Positions 33,911 through 57,158 of a DNA stretch of 64,000 nucleotides are shown here, piece after piece (positions within the stretch are counted from its first letter, which is position 1; every line of letters begins with the position of its first letter). The stretch is from the NCBI GenBank assembly GCA_001788295.1, contig MGBO01000021.1, positions 74,003-138,002 on the forward strand. Direction: 5' to 3'. A program made the translations under genes and the position numbers. The DNA comes from Candidatus Roizmanbacteria bacterium RIFOXYC1_FULL_41_16 (lineage in GTDB: Bacteria; Patescibacteriota; Microgenomatia; UBA1406). The notes under the pieces are model-generated. The model saw only the letters and a program-made list of their open reading frames with translations, was not told the DNA's origin and did no database searches.

Positions 33911-35597
33911 GCTCCATTTTTAAATACTGCAGTCTTTTTTTAATTTCCGGTTTTTCCAAATTGTAAAGTTTGAGAATTTTTTTAAGTAAGGTAATGGCGG
34001 CTTCAAACTCAGGCTGAATCACCTGTGACACACCAAGTGCTTTGAAATGCCTCAGATTACTGCTCAAATGAGTTCGAGTCAAAATCCGAATATCCGGGTT
34101 AATCCGCCTGGCTTCCAAAATAATCTGTTCCTGCTCGATCGAGGACGGCACGGACAGAATCAGAAATTTGGCTTTCTCCACCTGCGCATAATCCAAAATT
34201 TCCGGCTCGGTCGCGTCGCCATACACCGCTTTCACTCCCCGATGCAGCAACTTTTTGATTCTGTCCGCGTCAGTATCAATAACCACCAAAGGCAACTGAC
34301 TCAAAATCAAGCCATGACCAATATAGCTGCCCACCCGACCGTAACCACAAAGAACAATATGATTGTCAAATTTCAGTTGATCAAAAACCATTTTCACTTC
34401 ACGAGTGGAAAAATGCTTTAAAAACGGCAGGTGTCGACTGATAAAATAGTTAAACCAGCGGTAAAATTTAAGCTTAGAACGATAAACAAAACTAAACAAA
34501 AGCAGGCTTGCCGTAATTACCATTACCAGAAATTGGTAATGGGCATTGCCGATTAAACGGCTCCGGCTCATCAAAGTCAGCAAAATAAAAGCAAATTCAC
34601 CAATTTGCATCAGATCAAAGCTGACCCAAAAAGCGGTTTTTTGGTGCAGGCCAAGAACAATAAAGATCAGCCAGAGCACCACAAACTTAATCACCATCAA
34701 AACAAAAGCTGCCCCAAAAGCCCCAATCATGATCAAAGGATTAAAATTGGTGATGTAAGTGCCCAAAAAAAAGAAGAACAAAACTAAGAGAACGTCGCGA
34801 AAAACCCTGACCTGAGAAAATATTTCATGTTGTTCGCGTCTACCTGCCAAAAGCAGGCCGATGATAAAACCGGCCGTGGTTTCGGGGATACTGAAATACC
34901 CAAACAAACCGATTAACAAAAACAAAAGTGCAAAAGTAAACAAGGCCAACTCTTCCCTATTCAGGCGGAGTTTGTCAAAAACCAAATTTATTATTTTTGT
35001 TAATAAATAAAAACTCAAGGCAATCAGAGCAACCTTTTGAACAAACAGCCAGGCCAAAACTAATCCACCCTGGCTCTTCCCCACCAAAAAGGTCAATAAG
35101 GTAATTGCAACCACCGAAACCAGATCCTGAAAAATCAAAATACTGAGTGTGACCTCACCCGAAACAGAGGCATCTTCGGCCCGAGATTGTAATAGCTTAC
35201 CAACCACTGCGGTTGAAGACATCGCTAGAGTCAAACCCACCAACAGAGCCGGCATTAAACTATGAATAAGCAAATAGCTGGGAATAGCCAGAATCAGGCC
35301 GGTGATCACCACTTGCGCCACCGAACCGGTAATCAGCAAGCGCCCGGCGCTAAACAAGCGCTGCAGGGACAACTCCAAACCAATTGTAAACAACAACAAC
35401 ACAATTCCCAAATTAGACAAGGGCTCAAAAAAACTTTTGACCGCTTCATTGTTCAAAAACAGATTGCTGGCACACAATCCCAAAATAATATAAAAGATAA
35501 GGCTTGGTTTTTGCAATTTTCCGGCTAACACTGAACCAAACAAAGAAGTCAAAAGAATGGCAGACAAAATCAGGAACAAGGAATTCAAACTCAGCAT
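33894..35597 (-). CDS. Kef-type K+/H+ antiporter (CPA2) with C-terminal TrkA-N (RCK) domain
   Basis: About 12 TM Na_H_Exchanger domain followed by the Rossmann motif IVLCGYGRVGSYIG. Confidence 0.7.
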   Translation of the reverse strand: MLSLNSLFLILSAILLTSLFGSVLAGKLQKPSLIFYIILGLCASNLFLNNEAVKSFFEPLSNLGIVLLLFTIGLELSLQRLFSAGRLLITGSVAQVVITGLILAIPSYLLIHSLMPALLVGLTLAMSSTAVVGKLLQSRAEDASVSGEVTLSILIFQDLVSVVAITLLTFLVGKSQGGLVLAWLFVQKVALIALSFYLLTKIINLVFDKLRLNREELALFTFALLFLLIGLFGYFSIPETTAGFIIGLLLAGRREQHEIFSQVRVFRDVLLVLFFFFLGTYITNFNPLIMIGAFGAAFVLMVIKFVVLWLIFIVLGLHQKTAFWVSFDLMQIGEFAFILLTLMSRSRLIGNAHYQFLVMVITASLLLFSFVYRSKLKFYRWFNYFISRHLPFLKHFSTREVKMVFDQLKFDNHIVLCGYGRVGSYIGHGLILSQLPLVVIDTDADRIKKLLHRGVKAVYGDATEPEILDYAQVEKAKFLILSVPSSIEQEQIILEARRINPDIRILTRTHLSSNLRHFKALGVSQVIQPEFEAAITLLKKILKLYNLEKPEIKKRLQYLKMEHGIQE

Positions 35598-44290: not shown

Positions 44291-44361
44291 TGCGGGTGTG
44301 GTTCAATGGTAGAACGAATCCCTTCCAAGGATTAGACGAGGGTTCGATTCCCTTCACCCGC
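44291..44361 (+). tRNA. tRNA-Gly (anticodon TCC)
   Basis: GCGGGTG-TG-GTTCAATGGTAGAAC-G-AATCC-CTTCCAA-GGATT-AGAC-GAGGGTTCGATTCCCTT-CACCCGC-T. CCA not encoded. Confidence 0.85.
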
Positions 44362-44557
44362 TCATGGAATTGTCACCGGAGACTACCCAAATTGTACTAG
44401 AATCGGTTAAATGTCTATCAATTTCTATTCTCGGATACATAGGTCTTCTCGCCGGTATGGAATTAGGAGGTAGGATTGTCGGTTACCCTGGTAGAGGCTT
44501 AGAAACTCACGAACAAATTATGAAAACTATTAAATCAGCTTTTAAAAAAAATCGGAC

Positions 44558-45226: not shown

Positions 45227-45349
45227 TGCTCTGGTTATTTGTGCGAACTGGAACCACCTCTTCCCATTCCGAACAGAGTCGTGAAACGGTTAGAGCGCCA
45301 ACGATACTACGGGTTAACGCCCAATGGAAAATAGGTCATAGCCAGGGCA
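45227..45349 (+). rRNA. rrf: 5S ribosomal RNA
   Basis: Matches the 5S consensus core …CCACCUCUUCCCAUUCCGAACAGAGUCGUGAAACGGUUAGAGCGCCAACGAUACUACGGG…GCCAGGGCA. Helix I pairs the 5' UGCUCUGG with the 3' end. Followed by a U5 tract. Confidence 0.85.
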
Positions 45350-45359
45350 TTTTTTGTGC

Positions 45360-46982
45360 CTATAAAATCACCGGAATTACTTCAGGCGCACGCTCATAAC
45401 GGGTATTGATAAAACTGCTCAACTGATTGGTCAGTGCCTCAGCCAAAGATTTGTCTGATTTGGTCTGATTAATAATCCGATTAGCTAGGGCTTCCAAATC
45501 TTTATAAAAAGCCTGCTCATTATAAATAAAGCCTTTGGAAATCAGCTTTACTGATTTGTCCTTTACAATCACTACCAAAACGCCTTCTTTACCCAGACTC
45601 TGGCGTTCCTTAAGAATGGTTTCGCCCACATCCCCTACCGATCGGCCATCAACTAACATATCTCTCAATAGAATCTTTTTGTCAGTATGAACTTTGCCAG
45701 CCTCCAAAACCAATGGCTCACCATCGTGCAAGCGAATAATATCGGTTTCTTTGTAGCCCAGATCCTGCATCACGTTGGCATAAGCACGGCCGTGTTTGAC
45801 AGTCGTCCCAATAGGTACCAAGTACTGTGGCCGGGTTAGCCTCACCAGCAACCGATGATCGCCCTGTGAGCCGTGACCTGAGGTATGAAGCTGATCTCGG
45901 ATGGCGGTATAAATCACCTCTGCCCCAAGTTCAATCAAGCCCTCAATCACCTCTTGTACATGGGCCTCGTTGCCCGGAATCGGATCGGCTGAAAATAAAA
46001 TCCGATCCAAGTGCTGCACCCGAATAAAAGGGTGCTTGTTGCTCGAGATCTTATCCAATGCCGAATTAAACTCACCCTGAGAACCGGTAAGAATCACACA
46101 CACGCTTTTGGGCGGTAGTTTTTTTGCCTGGTCTTCGCCTATCACATGCTCACGATTAAGGCGGATATAGTTTTCGTTAATGGCTATCTCCATATTACGC
46201 TTCATGGTGCGACCGACAAAGCAAAGCTTACGGTTGAATTTCAGCGCCGCCTCCACGCACTGCTTGATCCGGGAAATATTGGAGGCAAAAGTGGTCATAA
46301 AAAACCGGCCCTTGGTCCGGCGCATTTCTTCTTCAAAAGTACTCCCCACAATCGCCTCGGAAAGAGTAAAGCCCTCGCGCTCGGCGCCTAAGGCATCTGA
46401 GAGAAGAACCTTAATGCCGCTTTCGCCAGCCCGATTGATTTCATTAAAGTCCGGCGGCGCTCCGTAGACCGGAGTCAAATCGAATTTGAAGTCTGAGCCG
46501 TGATAAACATTACCGGCCGGAGTTTGAATCAGAATATGGGTCGTGTCCGGAATCGAGTGGGTCATATGAATATAACGCGCTTTAAAAGCTCCAAACTGGT
46601 AATCCTGATGGAACTTGATCTGATTGATCTTGGCTTCTTTGAGGTTGAGTTCCTTGAGTTTTTCCTCAATCAGCAAAGCCGCCAGCTTGGGAGCAAAAAC
46701 CGGCGGAAACCCGAGTTGTGGCAAAATAAAAGGCGTGGCGCCGATATGATCATCATGTCCATGAGTGATCAACAGCGCTCTAATTAAATGCTTTTTGTCT
46801 TTTAAATAACTGGTGTCAGGAATGACAAAATCAACACCCAAATTGGATAACTCAGACACAAAACCGACACCGCAGTCTACCAGCAGAATATCTTTAATCT
46901 GGCCCTGGTCCCACAGTTCATAAACGAACATATTTTTAGTAACATTGGATTGTCCCCCAAAAGGAATAATTCTTAATTTCAT
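45360..46982 (-). CDS. rnj: Ribonuclease J
   Basis: MBL motif LITHGHDDHIG, beta-CASP and RNase-J C-terminal region. 540 aa. Confidence 0.85.
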   Translation of the reverse strand: MKLRIIPFGGQSNVTKNMFVYELWDQGQIKDILLVDCGVGFVSELSNLGVDFVIPDTSYLKDKKHLIRALLITHGHDDHIGATPFILPQLGFPPVFAPKLAALLIEEKLKELNLKEAKINQIKFHQDYQFGAFKARYIHMTHSIPDTTHILIQTPAGNVYHGSDFKFDLTPVYGAPPDFNEINRAGESGIKVLLSDALGAEREGFTLSEAIVGSTFEEEMRRTKGRFFMTTFASNISRIKQCVEAALKFNRKLCFVGRTMKRNMEIAINENYIRLNREHVIGEDQAKKLPPKSVCVILTGSQGEFNSALDKISSNKHPFIRVQHLDRILFSADPIPGNEAHVQEVIEGLIELGAEVIYTAIRDQLHTSGHGSQGDHRLLVRLTRPQYLVPIGTTVKHGRAYANVMQDLGYKETDIIRLHDGEPLVLEAGKVHTDKKILLRDMLVDGRSVGDVGETILKERQSLGKEGVLVVIVKDKSVKLISKGFIYNEQAFYKDLEALANRIINQTKSDKSLAEALTNQLSSFINTRYERAPEVIPVIL

Positions 46983-54278: not shown

Positions 54279-55628
54279 TCAGATTTGTTTCAGGTTTTGG
54301 ATAGTGGCAACCTGCCCGGCCGAATAAATTTTGGTAAAACCCAAACGCTTGGCTTCTTTGGTAATTAAAGCCAAAGTGTTGGTTTTGCGGACATTGCCCA
54401 GCAGTCCCAGCTCGCCAATGAAAAGATGTTTGGGATCAAAGGCTTTGGCGGTCAGGCTAGAATAGAGTGCTACCGCCACTCCCAGATCAGCCAAAGTGTC
54501 TTTTATTTTTAAACCGCCTGAAACATTAACATAGATGTCAAATTTATCAACGGCCAGCCTAAGATATTTTTTAAGAATCGCCAAAATCAATTCCAGCCGT
54601 TTTTGATCCACACCCTTGGCCACTCTCTTTGGAAAAGCCAATGAAGAGGACACCACCAACGTTTCCACGGTTGCAAAAACCACCCGAACCCCTTGCCGAA
54701 CTGCCACCGACGCTTTACCCACGGCTTTGTCTGCCCACTCGAGGAAAAATTCGCTCGGATTAAGAACCTCGGCCATACCGGTTTGGGTCATTTCAAAAAA
54801 ACCCACCTCCTCAGTTGGTCCAAAACGATTCTTGAATGATCGCAAAATTCTAAGATTGCTGGTTTGTTCACCTTCCAGAAATAAGACACAGTCAACCATG
54901 TGTTCCAAAAATTTCGGCCCGGCAATCTCCCCTTCTTTGGTAATGTGACCAATCACCAAAGACGTCAGTTTATTTTGCTTACTGAAATTGACGATTTTTA
55001 ACAGCACTTCTTTGGCTTGACTCACCGAACCGGGCAAGCCCGGACTGTTGGCAGCAAACAGACCCTGAAGCGAATCAAATACCAATAAATTAATTTTGTT
55101 TTTGGCAATCAAAGCCGAAAGGCCTTCTAGAATACTGTCGATGTCTTTTTGGGAAGAAAAAAAAATGCTGTCGGTTTTGATATTAAGGCGTCGGCAGCGG
55201 CCCTCCACTTGATGGCCAGCCTCCTCTGACGAAATATAAGCGACCTTATTGTCACTGGCAAGCGCTTGTTTGGAAAGCACGGTGATTAATAATGTGCTCT
55301 TGCCTACTCCGGGCTCGCCGCTCAAAAGAATAACCTCGTCGCGAACAAACCCACCGCCCAGCACCCGATCTAGTTCGGCTAAACCCGAACTCAGGCGGCT
55401 GCTGTCTGGGGTATTTTTGGCAAACTGTTTGAGTTGCGCAAACTCCGCCTTCCCCGACGTTGTTCCATTTGTTCCATTTCGGGAATGGAACGGATTGATA
55501 GAAGGCTCTTTAAACTCTTTTAAAGTATTCCATTCCTGGCATTCCGGGCACTTACCAAACCAGGAAGCAAATGATGAGCCGCAATTGTCACATACAAATG
55601 ACGTGCTCGCTTTTTTGCCGACTTTCAT
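54279..55628 (-). CDS. radA: DNA repair protein RadA (Sms)
   Basis: N-terminal C4 zinc finger CDNCGSSFASWFGKCPECQEWNT, RecA-like Walker A GEPGVGKSTLL, Lon-like C-terminal domain. Confidence 0.85.
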   Translation of the reverse strand: MKVGKKASTSFVCDNCGSSFASWFGKCPECQEWNTLKEFKEPSINPFHSRNGTNGTTSGKAEFAQLKQFAKNTPDSSRLSSGLAELDRVLGGGFVRDEVILLSGEPGVGKSTLLITVLSKQALASDNKVAYISSEEAGHQVEGRCRRLNIKTDSIFFSSQKDIDSILEGLSALIAKNKINLLVFDSLQGLFAANSPGLPGSVSQAKEVLLKIVNFSKQNKLTSLVIGHITKEGEIAGPKFLEHMVDCVLFLEGEQTSNLRILRSFKNRFGPTEEVGFFEMTQTGMAEVLNPSEFFLEWADKAVGKASVAVRQGVRVVFATVETLVVSSSLAFPKRVAKGVDQKRLELILAILKKYLRLAVDKFDIYVNVSGGLKIKDTLADLGVAVALYSSLTAKAFDPKHLFIGELGLLGNVRKTNTLALITKEAKRLGFTKIYSAGQVATIQNLKQI

Positions 55629-55744
55629 CTTAGGGGTTATTTTAGCAAAAATGAAAAGCCGTATGTATGATTAAAATTGCTGTGGTACCCTGGAGAAAGG
55701 GCACCACAGCCTAAGTTCTTCTACTCCTTTTCGGGAGGAGAAGA

Positions 55745-55975
55745 TTAACGACGCATGGGGATGTTCATAAGATTCATAACAATCCCCAAGACAAACCCCC
55801 ATAAAGGGGCCGTCCAGAGGAAGCCTAAGGTCTCGGATCCTGTCAGGATCCAAGACACAATGAGCAAGGCTGCGAGCCACACGAGTGCGGCGGCACAGCC
55901 ATTACGTGAGTCGCCTATATATCTGGTTATCAAGGCGATAACCAGTATAGAAGCGACCTCCAACAACCAGTTCAT
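55745..55975 (-). CDS. Small (76 aa) two-TM membrane protein
   Basis: ATG preceded by AAGGAGG at -7 to -13. Two hydrophobic helices (ILVIALITRYI…; ALVWLAALLIVSWIL…GFVLGIVMNLM). Confidence 0.5.
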   Translation of the reverse strand: MNWLLEVASILVIALITRYIGDSRNGCAAALVWLAALLIVSWILTGSETLGFLWTAPLWGFVLGIVMNLMNIPMRR

Positions 55976-56127
55976 TTTTGCCTCCTTTCTTTCCGCCCAC
56001 CTGAATGGAGCAGAATATTCCCTCCTCCATAGTCATGAGAACTATGGGATCATGGGGATTTTTCCCAGACCATATCAGGGACTCGAGCTTTCTCCCGCTC
56101 GAATATGATATTCTGGGAAGGTTGTTC

Positions 56128-56180
56128 CAGAAAGAACTAAGGCCGGGATTATCATTCCGGCTTTAGTTCTTTCTGAAAAC
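56128..56180. other. Long perfect-stem hairpin (19-bp stem with one G·U, 10-nt loop)
   Basis: CAGAAAGAACTAAGGCCGG-gattatcatt-CCGGCTTTAGTTCTTTCTG. Lies downstream of the CBS gene and inside the inverted-repeat-bounded segment. No U-tract follows on either strand. Confidence 0.4.
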
Positions 56181-56303
56181 AGAAAGCTCTACATACATAC
56201 GGCTTATTAAAGAACTATAAACTTGGCTTTTTGGCAGCAAATGCCAATCGCTAGTTTAATAGACAGATAATTATACTATAGGATTGTCTAGAAAGCAAGT
56301 TAG

Positions 56304-57158
56304 TTAATTGGCGGAGCGAGTGGATCTTTTGGAGTTGGATTTAAACAAGTATCTTAACAAATCGCTGGTGGTAATTATGTTCAGGGGTTGAAAGCGATTT
56401 TTCATCACAATCACACTGCCGATCTCTTTATCCAAAATCAATTTAATAACTTCACTGATCTTCTGCTCTGGTGCCACCTGAATGGTAACGGTTTTAAGAA
56501 CGTGTTTGATTGTGTATTTGGCCAATTGATTCACCGGCTCTCCCCGATCAAAAAAGCCCATCCGCTCCTTGGGCTCATTAAACAAAGGCAACAGATCAAA
56601 CAATGAAACAATGCCTTGCAGATTGTTCTCCTGATTGACAATCACAATTTTTGAAAGCTTGGAGCGCTGAAAAAACCGCAACACTTCTTCAAAACTACTG
56701 TTTAGATTAATGCTTTGTAAATGGTGTTTGTTATCGACTAAGTCGCTTACTGCTCTGGTTGCCTTGGCATTGTTTAACTGAGAGCGCAGCACTCGTCTGG
56801 CCGTCACTATTCCTAGCATTTGGTTAGCCGAATCCAACACCGGCAAGTAATGAACCTTAGATTCCAGCATCAAGCGGGCAATTTCTTCAATCTTGGTGTC
56901 TAAATTTAATTTAGGTGGCGAAAAAAGACACTTTTTAAGTTTGGCAGACACAGGATAGTTCCGTTTGGTTAAGGTAAAATACGAATTAATCAAACCCAGA
57001 TATTGTCCCTGCTCAGTTACCATGACAGCGTCGTGGCTGCTTTTGAATTTGCTAATTGCTTCAGCCAGCTTGTCGTCGGGAGAGAGAGAAATAATTCCTT
57101 GAGTTTTTAAAATGTCTTTGGCAGTTATACCTCTGTTCGGTTGAGATTTAGCTTTCAT
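56304..57158 (-). CDS. CBS-domain protein (two CBS pairs)
   Basis: Four CBS-like repeats (…GIISLSPDDKLAEAI…, …VHYLPVLDS…). Confidence 0.65.
   Translation of the reverse strand: MKAKSQPNRGITAKDILKTQGIISLSPDDKLAEAISKFKSSHDAVMVTEQGQYLGLINSYFTLTKRNYPVSAKLKKCLFSPPKLNLDTKIEEIARLMLESKVHYLPVLDSANQMLGIVTARRVLRSQLNNAKATRAVSDLVDNKHHLQSINLNSSFEEVLRFFQRSKLSKIVIVNQENNLQGIVSLFDLLPLFNEPKERMGFFDRGEPVNQLAKYTIKHVLKTVTIQVAPEQKISEVIKLILDKEIGSVIVMKNRFQPLNIITTSDLLRYLFKSNSKRSTRSAN

Follow-up and report, generated by a model that had tools for sequence, protein, structure and literature searches.

We analysed a window of 64,000 nucleotides (nt) from Candidatus Roizmanbacteria bacterium RIFOXYC1_FULL_41_16, which belongs to the candidate phyla radiation (CPR), or Patescibacteria, and within it the spacer that separates a gene encoding a CBS-domain protein (here CBS) from radA. 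All of the genes around this spacer, rpsF-ssb-rpsR-CBS upstream and radA downstream, lie on the minus strand (Table 1), and the CBS and RadA proteins are identical to GenBank entries of Candidatus Roizmanbacteria bacterium RIFOXYB2_FULL_41_10 and its sister bins from Rifle groundwater. Assemblies held in ENA, JGI, NCBI and Logan contain the CBS-radA locus with 100% identity. Within the spacer lies a 550-nt segment that is bounded by a short inverted repeat and contains a small open reading frame (ORF) of 76 amino acids (aa). An earlier note, made from the sequence alone, had regarded this segment as a possible miniature mobile insertion or, failing that, a toxin/holin-like cassette. Here, we describe its anatomy, its exceptional foldability and its absence from related genomes, and we tentatively read it as a membrane-protein gene on a highly structured messenger RNA resembling those of type I toxins.

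Structure of the CBS-radA spacer

As the earlier note had claimed, positions 55656-55669 read AAGCCGTATGTATG and positions 56192-56205 are the exact reverse complement of this 14-mer; the match can be extended in neither direction. The arms do not flank the whole radA-CBS space, as had been thought, in that the left arm lies 27 nt from the radA start and the right arm falls 98 nt short of the CBS stop. Nor is such a repeat as unlikely a product of chance as was supposed: in 28% of Markov simulations of the 64-kb window there was at least one perfect inverted repeat of 14 nt whose arms were separated by 30-700 nt. Since about 28% of simulated windows of the same composition contain one, the 14-bp repeat is not significant by itself. 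The segment is indeed GC-richer (47.6%, compared with 41.8 +/- 3.5%), but the excess is modest and places it only among the top 5% of 550-nt windows.

The degree of structure predicted for the segment is striking. Its minus strand folds at -259.7 kcal/mol, as against -168 +/- 8 kcal/mol for dinucleotide shuffles (z = -11.6), and its plus strand gives z = -12.5 by the same comparison. When the whole 64 kb was scanned in 200-nt windows, with minimum free energy regressed on GC content, the locus accounted for six of the eight most structured windows on the minus strand and, on the plus strand, for the two strongest. Those ranking next after the locus lie at ~46601-46800 (plus) and ~34501-34700 (minus), each with z ~-3.2. 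The 14-bp helix encloses about 12 stem-loops; the five that lie within the ORF comprise up to 21 paired positions. The ORF alone has a minus-strand z-score of -7.5 and the leader one of -7.2; the stretch of 98 nt from the right arm to the CBS stop (56206-56303) is unstructured (z = -0.4).

In the thermodynamic ensemble, the two arms (56192-56205 and 55669-55656) pair with a probability of ~1.0 and would close the whole array. It is their placement that sets them apart from chance: the 550 nt which they immediately flank are the most structured of the window, and by our own rough, post hoc estimate a random 14-nt inverted repeat would have a probability of about 1e-5 of landing so close, to within a few nucleotides, on the outer side of the outermost hairpins of the leading structural outlier. 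The structured block and the repeat-bounded block coincide, and we take the 14-bp repeat to belong to the structured unit.

The hairpin reported just past the stop codon of the small ORF was located there (hairpin E in Table 1), and a long hairpin previously described as having a 19-bp stem corresponds to hairpin A, whose stem comprises 22-25 bp; a copy of one hairpin A arm lies upstream (56180-56191) and offers an alternative pairing. Additionally, a near-perfect 27-nt palindrome, GTCTCGGATCCTG T CAGGATCCAAGAC, which contains GGATCC twice, occupies 55830-55856 within the small ORF; the mRNA model folds it into a hairpin whose stem has 12 bp and whose loop has 3 nt. Upstream of the array, the sequence TTGCTT-17-TATAAT may constitute a promoter pointing into it; the TTGCTT -35 element matches the consensus at only three of six positions, and it was missed by a stricter scan and picked up by a relaxed one.

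Comparison of the segment with the Rfam 15 covariance models, including those for group II introns, OLE, HEARO, RNase P and transfer-messenger RNA (tmRNA), gave no match at gathering thresholds and only chance-level matches to eukaryotic families at E <= 10, and ARAGORN found no tmRNA. In the window as a whole, the Rfam matches at gathering thresholds comprise only tRNAs and 5S ribosomal RNA (rRNA). The 5S rRNA gene and a nearby tRNA lie at 45230-45347 and 44292-44362, and no match to 16S or 23S rRNA was obtained anywhere in the window at these thresholds; the 5S gene thus seems to be unlinked from the large rRNAs.

Several other known elements were also considered. The AGCCGUAU...AUACGGCU of the two arms recalls the strands of domain V in group II introns; such an intron was rejected, since domain V is a local hairpin of 34 nt, and for want of any Rfam intron match, of a 5' GUGYG and of domain VI features. 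A retron was rejected, as the locus is bordered by genes for a CBS-domain protein and RadA and a reverse transcriptase domain was not found, and an integron attC site was rejected, as there is no integrase and there are no core sites.

Table 1. Features of the CBS-radA locus (coordinates of the 64-kb window)
Feature	Coordinates	Strand	Description
rpsF-ssb-rpsR-CBS	CBS 57158..56304	minus	upstream of spacer
Promoter-like TTGCTT (56298-56293)-17 nt-TATAAT (56275-56270)	56270..56298	minus	outside the inverted repeat, in the AT-rich unstructured part of the insert
CBS-radA spacer	55629-56303		675 bp
Predicted closing helix, 5' arm AAGCCGUAUGUAUG (minus-strand RNA)	56192..56205	minus	right terminal repeat of the earlier note
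Hairpin A	56125..56178	minus	22-25 bp stem; strongest local inverted repeat of the window
Hairpin B	56062..56119	minus	three stacked helices of 8, 6 and 8 bp
Hairpins C and D	56007..56047	minus	decoy GGAGGAGG motif paired to CUCC
Shine-Dalgarno sequence AAAGGAGG	55981..55988	minus	five nt upstream of ATG
76-aa ORF	55975..55745	minus	orphan membrane protein, three predicted helices
ORF stem-loops	55909-55958, 55864-55905, 55830-55856, ~55793-55808, 55756-55788	minus	fold model
Predicted anti-Shine-Dalgarno GCUUCC	55819..55824	minus	inside the ORF; single-sequence thermodynamic prediction
Hairpin E	55717..55744	minus	directly after the stop codon
Hairpin F	55679..55710	minus	13-bp GC-rich stem, then AAUUUUAAUC; terminator-like
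Predicted closing helix, 3' arm CAUACAUACGGCUU, then UUUUCAUUUUU	55656..55669	minus	left terminal repeat of the earlier note
Promoter-like TTAGCA-18-TATGAT	55642..55671	plus	9/12 consensus match, weak
radA extended -10 box TGCTAAAAT	55639..55647	minus	left-edge marker of the novel DNA, outside the insert
radA	55628..54279	minus	downstream of spacer

The 76-aa ORF and its strain variants

The 76-aa ORF and the strong ribosome-binding site that had been claimed for it were both confirmed. In place of two transmembrane helices, as first proposed, three are predicted, and by our reading the charges around them, together with an Arg-rich loop and tail, fit the positive-inside rule. The combination of an ORF of at least 70 aa, a 5-mer Shine-Dalgarno (SD) sequence at the right distance and at least two hydrophobic segments occurred in 0 of 4000 dinucleotide shuffles of the spacer, and the 76-aa frame ranks best among the six reading frames. 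Judged from these features and, above all, from the strain L040 described below, the 76-aa ORF is very probably a real gene.

The profile and structure searches that the earlier note had proposed for the 76-aa protein were carried out with HMMER, Pfam, PHROGs, NCBIfam, PADLOC and Foldseek, and yielded no homologue. There was none in 5.8 billion clusters searched by word index or in 1.84 billion representatives searched exhaustively by HMMER, the only extra match (P0002) being a spurious repeat protein; there was likewise no match in IMG/VR, and Foldseek found none for the AlphaFold model in PDB or BFVD. Homologue searches with the other ORFs of the segment returned only those ORFs themselves. 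One of these, an antisense ORF of 115/117 aa (55755-56108, plus strand), is annotated by GenBank (OGK64811.1 and its sister-bin equivalents) and by some other gene callers. Its frame has a worse codon score than the 76-aa ORF and no ribosome-binding site, and the GenBank annotation of the 117-aa ORF as a gene is probably a mis-annotation.

The codon usage of the 76-aa ORF is itself unusual. Its synonymous-codon score, -0.063, is lower than that of every one of 196 native 76-codon chunks and falls within the range of the wrong-frame controls, and its GC content at third codon positions (GC3) is 0.62, compared with 0.45 for the host. We attribute this codon usage to a foreign origin, to the demands of RNA structure, or to both. 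The similarity to wrong-frame controls would also be expected if the segment specified a large structured non-coding RNA of ~550 nt with a terminal helix, in which the ORF is fortuitous, or else a dual-function RNA. Extreme foldability that extends into the ORF, a GC content above that of the host and the annotation by NCBI of the antisense 115/117-aa ORF instead are in keeping with such an RNA; the result of the 4000 shuffles speaks against it, as do the differences among strains.

The most informative of these strains, L040, is 99.6% identical to the window over 6.3 kb, with all 24 differences confined to 55713-55783. Within the ORF, CTT>CTC, CGT>AGG and CGT>AGA are all synonymous, each of the Arg changes requiring two substitutions; ATT>GTG is accompanied by GTT>ATC, amounting to an exchange of Ile and Val; and CCT is added in frame before the conserved stop. 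The untranslated indels, by comparison, are of 1 and 2 nt and so are not multiples of three. Because the L040 changes are synonymous or in frame and the stop is kept, the pattern is one of purifying selection acting on the 76-aa protein. At the RNA level, hairpin E is replaced in L040 by a different 9-bp hairpin in the same place, with two doubly compensated pairs (RNAalifold), and in the ORF hairpin at 55756-55788 two G-U pairs become G-C and a third pair is kept as G-U. To judge from its sequence, L040 speaks for a genuine gene as well as for an RNA structure under selection. A fortuitous ORF is at odds with the conservation of amino acids through multi-nucleotide synonymous changes and with the retention of frame and stop, and no known family was matched in Rfam. 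We regard such a non-coding or dual-function RNA as improbable. Like OLE, RNase P RNA and tmRNA, the segment is ~550 nt in size, consists of a multi-hairpin array in a terminal helix and exceeds its host in GC content; it differs from these RNAs in its lack of an Rfam match, in its constrained coding frame and in being present in a single species only.

A second strain, L035 (98.6% identity), contains two changes that turn G-C or A-U into G-U on the minus strand. The change at 56114 (T>C, hairpin B) turns A-U into G-U on the minus strand only, and the change at 56137 (C>G) breaks one hairpin A pair. Across three variants, 9 predicted pairs vary, of which 7 stay paired on the minus strand (2 doubly compensated, 5 one-sided) and 2 are broken. 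The five one-sided changes are all transitions that leave the minus-strand pair intact, whereas on the plus strand three of the five would disrupt it; the minus-strand fold contains 18 G-U pairs and the plus-strand fold 6. These observations provide modest but consistent evidence for predicted structure at the RNA level, on the strand that is sense for the gene. None of the three variants differs in the arms, in hairpin F, in the SD or in its anti-SD, and this invariance is uninformative either way.

The differences are clustered in both strains: 24 lie within 459 nt of radA (55090-55548) in L035 and 24 within 70 nt in L040, with perfect identity around both clusters. These clusters look like recombination tracts from more divergent donors, and the L040 tract would imply an unsampled diverged copy of the small gene.

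Insertion at the CBS-radA junction

As the earlier note had proposed, the length of the radA-CBS spacer was compared among relatives. CBS and radA overlap in L038 (CBS identity 68%) and are separated by 28 bp in L007 (~49%), 31 bp in L030 and L031 (70%) and 43 bp in L029 (74%). Longer spacers were found in L028, the closest relative (CBS identity 85%), and in L032, where a 220-bp insert carries a 62-aa acidic ORF (L028:4829-5048; L032:1937-2051), in L005, which has a 1231-bp insert (L005:3752-4982), and in L039, which has a 2453-bp insert with three ORFs on the opposite strand (L039:3299-5751). The inserts of these relatives are mutually unrelated and unstructured, and their ORFs are orphans that have no match in Pfam or PADLOC; no remnants of the 62-aa ORF of L028 and L032 were found in the window. 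These comparisons indicate that insertions recur at the CBS-radA junction, a hot spot at which at least four lineages of the Roizmanbacteria clade have independently gained unrelated inserts made of orphan ORFs.

Homology to the empty site of L029 stops near 56310-56322; on the far side it begins again at TTTTTGCTAAAAT (55651-55639), which is the conserved extended -10 box of radA. The novel DNA thus comprises ~660 nt, from ~55652 to ~56310-56322, as delimited against relatives at only 74-85% protein identity. By comparison with the L029 empty site, the right arm sits ~105-115 nt inside the novel DNA and, therefore, is not the boundary of the insertion. The segment appears to be the core of a lineage-specific, single-copy insertion at a junction that is compact in most relatives, and the best explanation is that the cassette was horizontally acquired or newly arose. 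The proposal of a miniature insertion accordingly holds in one respect, since the junction contains extra DNA that relatives lack and this DNA has atypical codon usage and GC3, but not in the other, since the repeats are not its boundaries.

Both genes bordering the insertion show features of their own. The CBS protein of the window genome ends in a tail of ~12 aa (KSNSKRSTRSAN, 56304-56345) that is missing from relatives. Compared with L029 (TTTTAAATCCAA), a 1-nt deletion in the T run TTTAAATCCAA has removed the ancestral stop, so that CBS translation runs into former spacer or insert DNA. On the other side, the window, L028, L029 and L039 all have TGCTA[A/G]AAT at a distance of 0-10 nt upstream of the start codon of radA, a position which implies that radA would have its own promoter and a very short leader or a leaderless mRNA, even directly after CBS.

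[quoted passage not shown] MITEs are defined by terminal repeats, direct repeats and multicopy status; they "tend to be multicopy" and can carry orphan ORFs (PMC10969869). Perfect 14-bp inverted repeats are present here, and the segment is absent from relatives, compositionally different and equipped with an orphan ORF, as such an element may be. The sites just outside the repeats, however, show no target-site duplication: the flanks read ...AATGAA / ATTAAAG..., and no direct repeat of at least 2 nt adjoins the arms. Nor was a second copy found. Elsewhere in the window, the 14-mer did not recur even with 2 mismatches allowed, nor did hairpin A with 3 allowed, and no piece of the spacer of at least 14 nt was found again. 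The hairpin A pattern, with its loop left free, identified this locus only in JGI metagenome contigs, which include this population, and gave no match in IMG/VR; the spacer DNA had no match in phage or plasmid collections. The 76-aa and the antisense 115/117-aa ORFs are each unique among ~15 billion proteins, and the ORFs of the segment occur on 22 contigs, as compared with 22-25 for the flanking single-copy genes. Taken with the position of the right arm inside the novel DNA, these results make a MITE very improbable. The segment resembles bacterial MITEs such as Correia, ERIC, Chunjie and MITEAba12 in being short, non-autonomous and intergenic, with perfect terminal inverted repeats, a strongly foldable transcript and a possible orphan ORF. 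It differs from them in being single-copy, in having no target-site duplication and termini that are not insertion boundaries, and in comprising many different local hairpins rather than one long hairpin driven by the terminal repeats.

Short perfect inverted repeats around a few hundred intergenic bp, with a promoter-like site just outside, are also the arrangement of an inverton, in which a site-specific recombinase would flip the 550 bp between the 14-bp repeats and uncouple the gene from the outside promoter. A 516-nt contig, L004 (55668-56183), covers nearly exactly the interior of the repeat, in keeping with such a switch. Its ends, however, fall inside or short of the arms, unlike the graph break of an inverton, which lies just beyond them; moreover, the segment has the same orientation in seven independent assemblies from different samples, and no recombinase gene adjoins the locus. 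Of the explanations considered, we hold this to be the least probable. Two further independent short contigs, L002 and L003, end at the same base of radA (55515/55516), near the edge of the polymorphic tract, the nearest L035 difference being at 55548, and the ends of all three contigs probably represent breaks due to strain variation or coverage.

A candidate translationally restrained mRNA

The messengers of type I toxins are characterized by a compact, stable primary transcript, a long-distance interaction between its 5' and 3' ends, successive anti-SD traps and a small membrane protein as product (PMC8594479, PMC6733600). The toxins usually comprise 20-60 aa and their mRNAs 150-400 nt (PMC8594479), and the antitoxin is an antisense RNA of 60-200 nt that is encoded in cis or in trans.

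A comparable organization can be proposed for the minus strand of the segment. A transcript initiated at the TATAAT promoter in the AT-rich lead-in would pass through a stem-loop leader of ~215 nt to the strong SD, then through the orphan gene for the three-helix membrane protein, and finally through two 3' hairpins, making up a self-contained unit. In this transcript, the 14-bp repeats would be the two strands of a 5'-3' helix closing a 550-nt hairpin array rather than the ends of a transposon. The SD would be trapped first by an upstream anti-SD and then, in the compact fold, by an anti-SD inside the ORF, so that the primary transcript would be stable but poorly translated until processed or unfolded, as in hok and aapA.

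The predicted pairings are consistent with this sequence of events. The SD sequence GGAGGC (55985-55980) pairs with GCUUCC (55824-55819) at a predicted P = 0.94, and its predicted partner while the nascent transcript is shorter is the upstream CUUUCU near 56184. At every transcript length tested, the predicted probability that the SD is unpaired lies between 0.02 and 0.3, and is lowest when the 3' arm is included. GGAGG/CCUCC motifs, moreover, are 9-12-fold enriched in the segment.

Several observations weigh against this interpretation, and some of them speak for an ordinary strain-specific small membrane-protein gene, the hairpins of which would serve only to stabilise, to terminate or to insulate the rpsF-CBS operon from radA, with no RNA role for the repeat and no toxin-like lock on translation. 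The terminator-like hairpin F precedes the 3' arm and is a plausible intrinsic terminator, and efficient termination at this site would preclude the closing helix. The occlusion of the SD falls within the range of control genes, 2 of 12 having an equally occluded SD, and the inverted repeat alone is compatible with chance (P ~0.28). There is no convincing or evident antisense RNA gene: a single, weak promoter match was found on the plus strand at 55642-55671 and no terminator on that strand, so that TTAGCA-18-TATGAT is the sole candidate start for any antisense RNA over the 3' end of the 76-aa gene. Both the protein, with 76 aa and three helices, and the mRNA, at ~600 nt, exceed the type I ranges given above, and the 76-aa protein has no match to a toxin, holin or defence family in Pfam, PHROGs, NCBIfam or PADLOC. 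The codon score of the ORF is 3-4 standard deviations below that of native genes, and its unusual codon usage could also be that of a weakly expressed or decaying gene. Finally, the whole-segment z-scores favour neither strand, and the statements on structure are thermodynamic predictions supplemented by three near-identical strains, with no diverged homologue for covariation analysis.

An ordinary small gene, however, leaves unexplained the five stem-loops within a 231-nt ORF (z = -7.5), the perfect 14-bp helix placed exactly outside the outermost hairpins of the top outlier in 64 kb, and the minus-strand-specific manner in which the variants keep their pairs; we consider it doubtful, if by no means negligible. 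The reading we favour, which we hold only tentatively and short of an even expectation, is that the single-copy, lineage-specific insert is a self-contained orphan membrane-protein unit on a hyper-structured, locked mRNA of the type I-toxin kind. The mRNA is, in terms of its predicted fold, probably translationally restrained. With moderate confidence, we suggest that it works like a type I toxin transcript, and we do not file it as a member of the type I family. The suggestion of a toxin/holin-like cassette in the earlier note fits these observations.

A bolder and unlikely version of the same idea is that the locus is the first type I-toxin-like locked-mRNA module of the CPR and the founder of a new family, in which a ~600-nt stem-loop transcript with a 5'-3' helix would keep a three-helix membrane toxin of 76 aa silent until processing, the module having been acquired at a recombination hot spot upstream of radA. 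In a variant of this version, the transcript would be a dual-function RNA, the hairpin array having a role of its own. The phylum would be an unusual one for such a module, and a search of the literature yielded no paper that connects type I systems to the Patescibacteria.

The element is restricted to a single species, and the function proposed for it is a predicted one. If the locked-mRNA reading is true, RNA-controlled small membrane toxins extend to the ultra-small, host-dependent Patescibacteria, in which both protein and mRNA would be larger than in known type I families. The case shows that such loci can be detected from RNA foldability alone, even where the protein is an orphan, and suggests that where short perfect inverted repeats surround a small gene without a duplication or second copy, an RNA closing helix is likelier than transposon ends. 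Whatever the function, the hot spot between CBS and radA bears on gene gain in streamlined CPR genomes, and the public annotation of the locus, which lists the antisense 117-aa ORF, is probably wrong.

The closest parallels are hok/Sok of plasmid R1 and aapA/IsoA of Helicobacter pylori, which likewise combine a small hydrophobic membrane protein with a compact, structured mRNA whose 5' and 3' ends are complementary, whose SD is sequestered (by prediction, in the present case) and which offers several candidate anti-SD motifs; like the unit described here, they are accessory, patchily distributed loci. In these systems the toxins comprise 20-60 aa and usually one helix, and the transcripts 150-400 nt, whereas 76 aa, three helices and ~600 nt are predicted here. 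The predicted anti-SD lies inside the ORF rather than in the 3' end, there is no sequence similarity to known toxin families, and no antisense RNA gene can be defined. Finally, unlike hok/Sok and aapA/IsoA, this putative locked mRNA belongs to a bacterium of the Patescibacteria.

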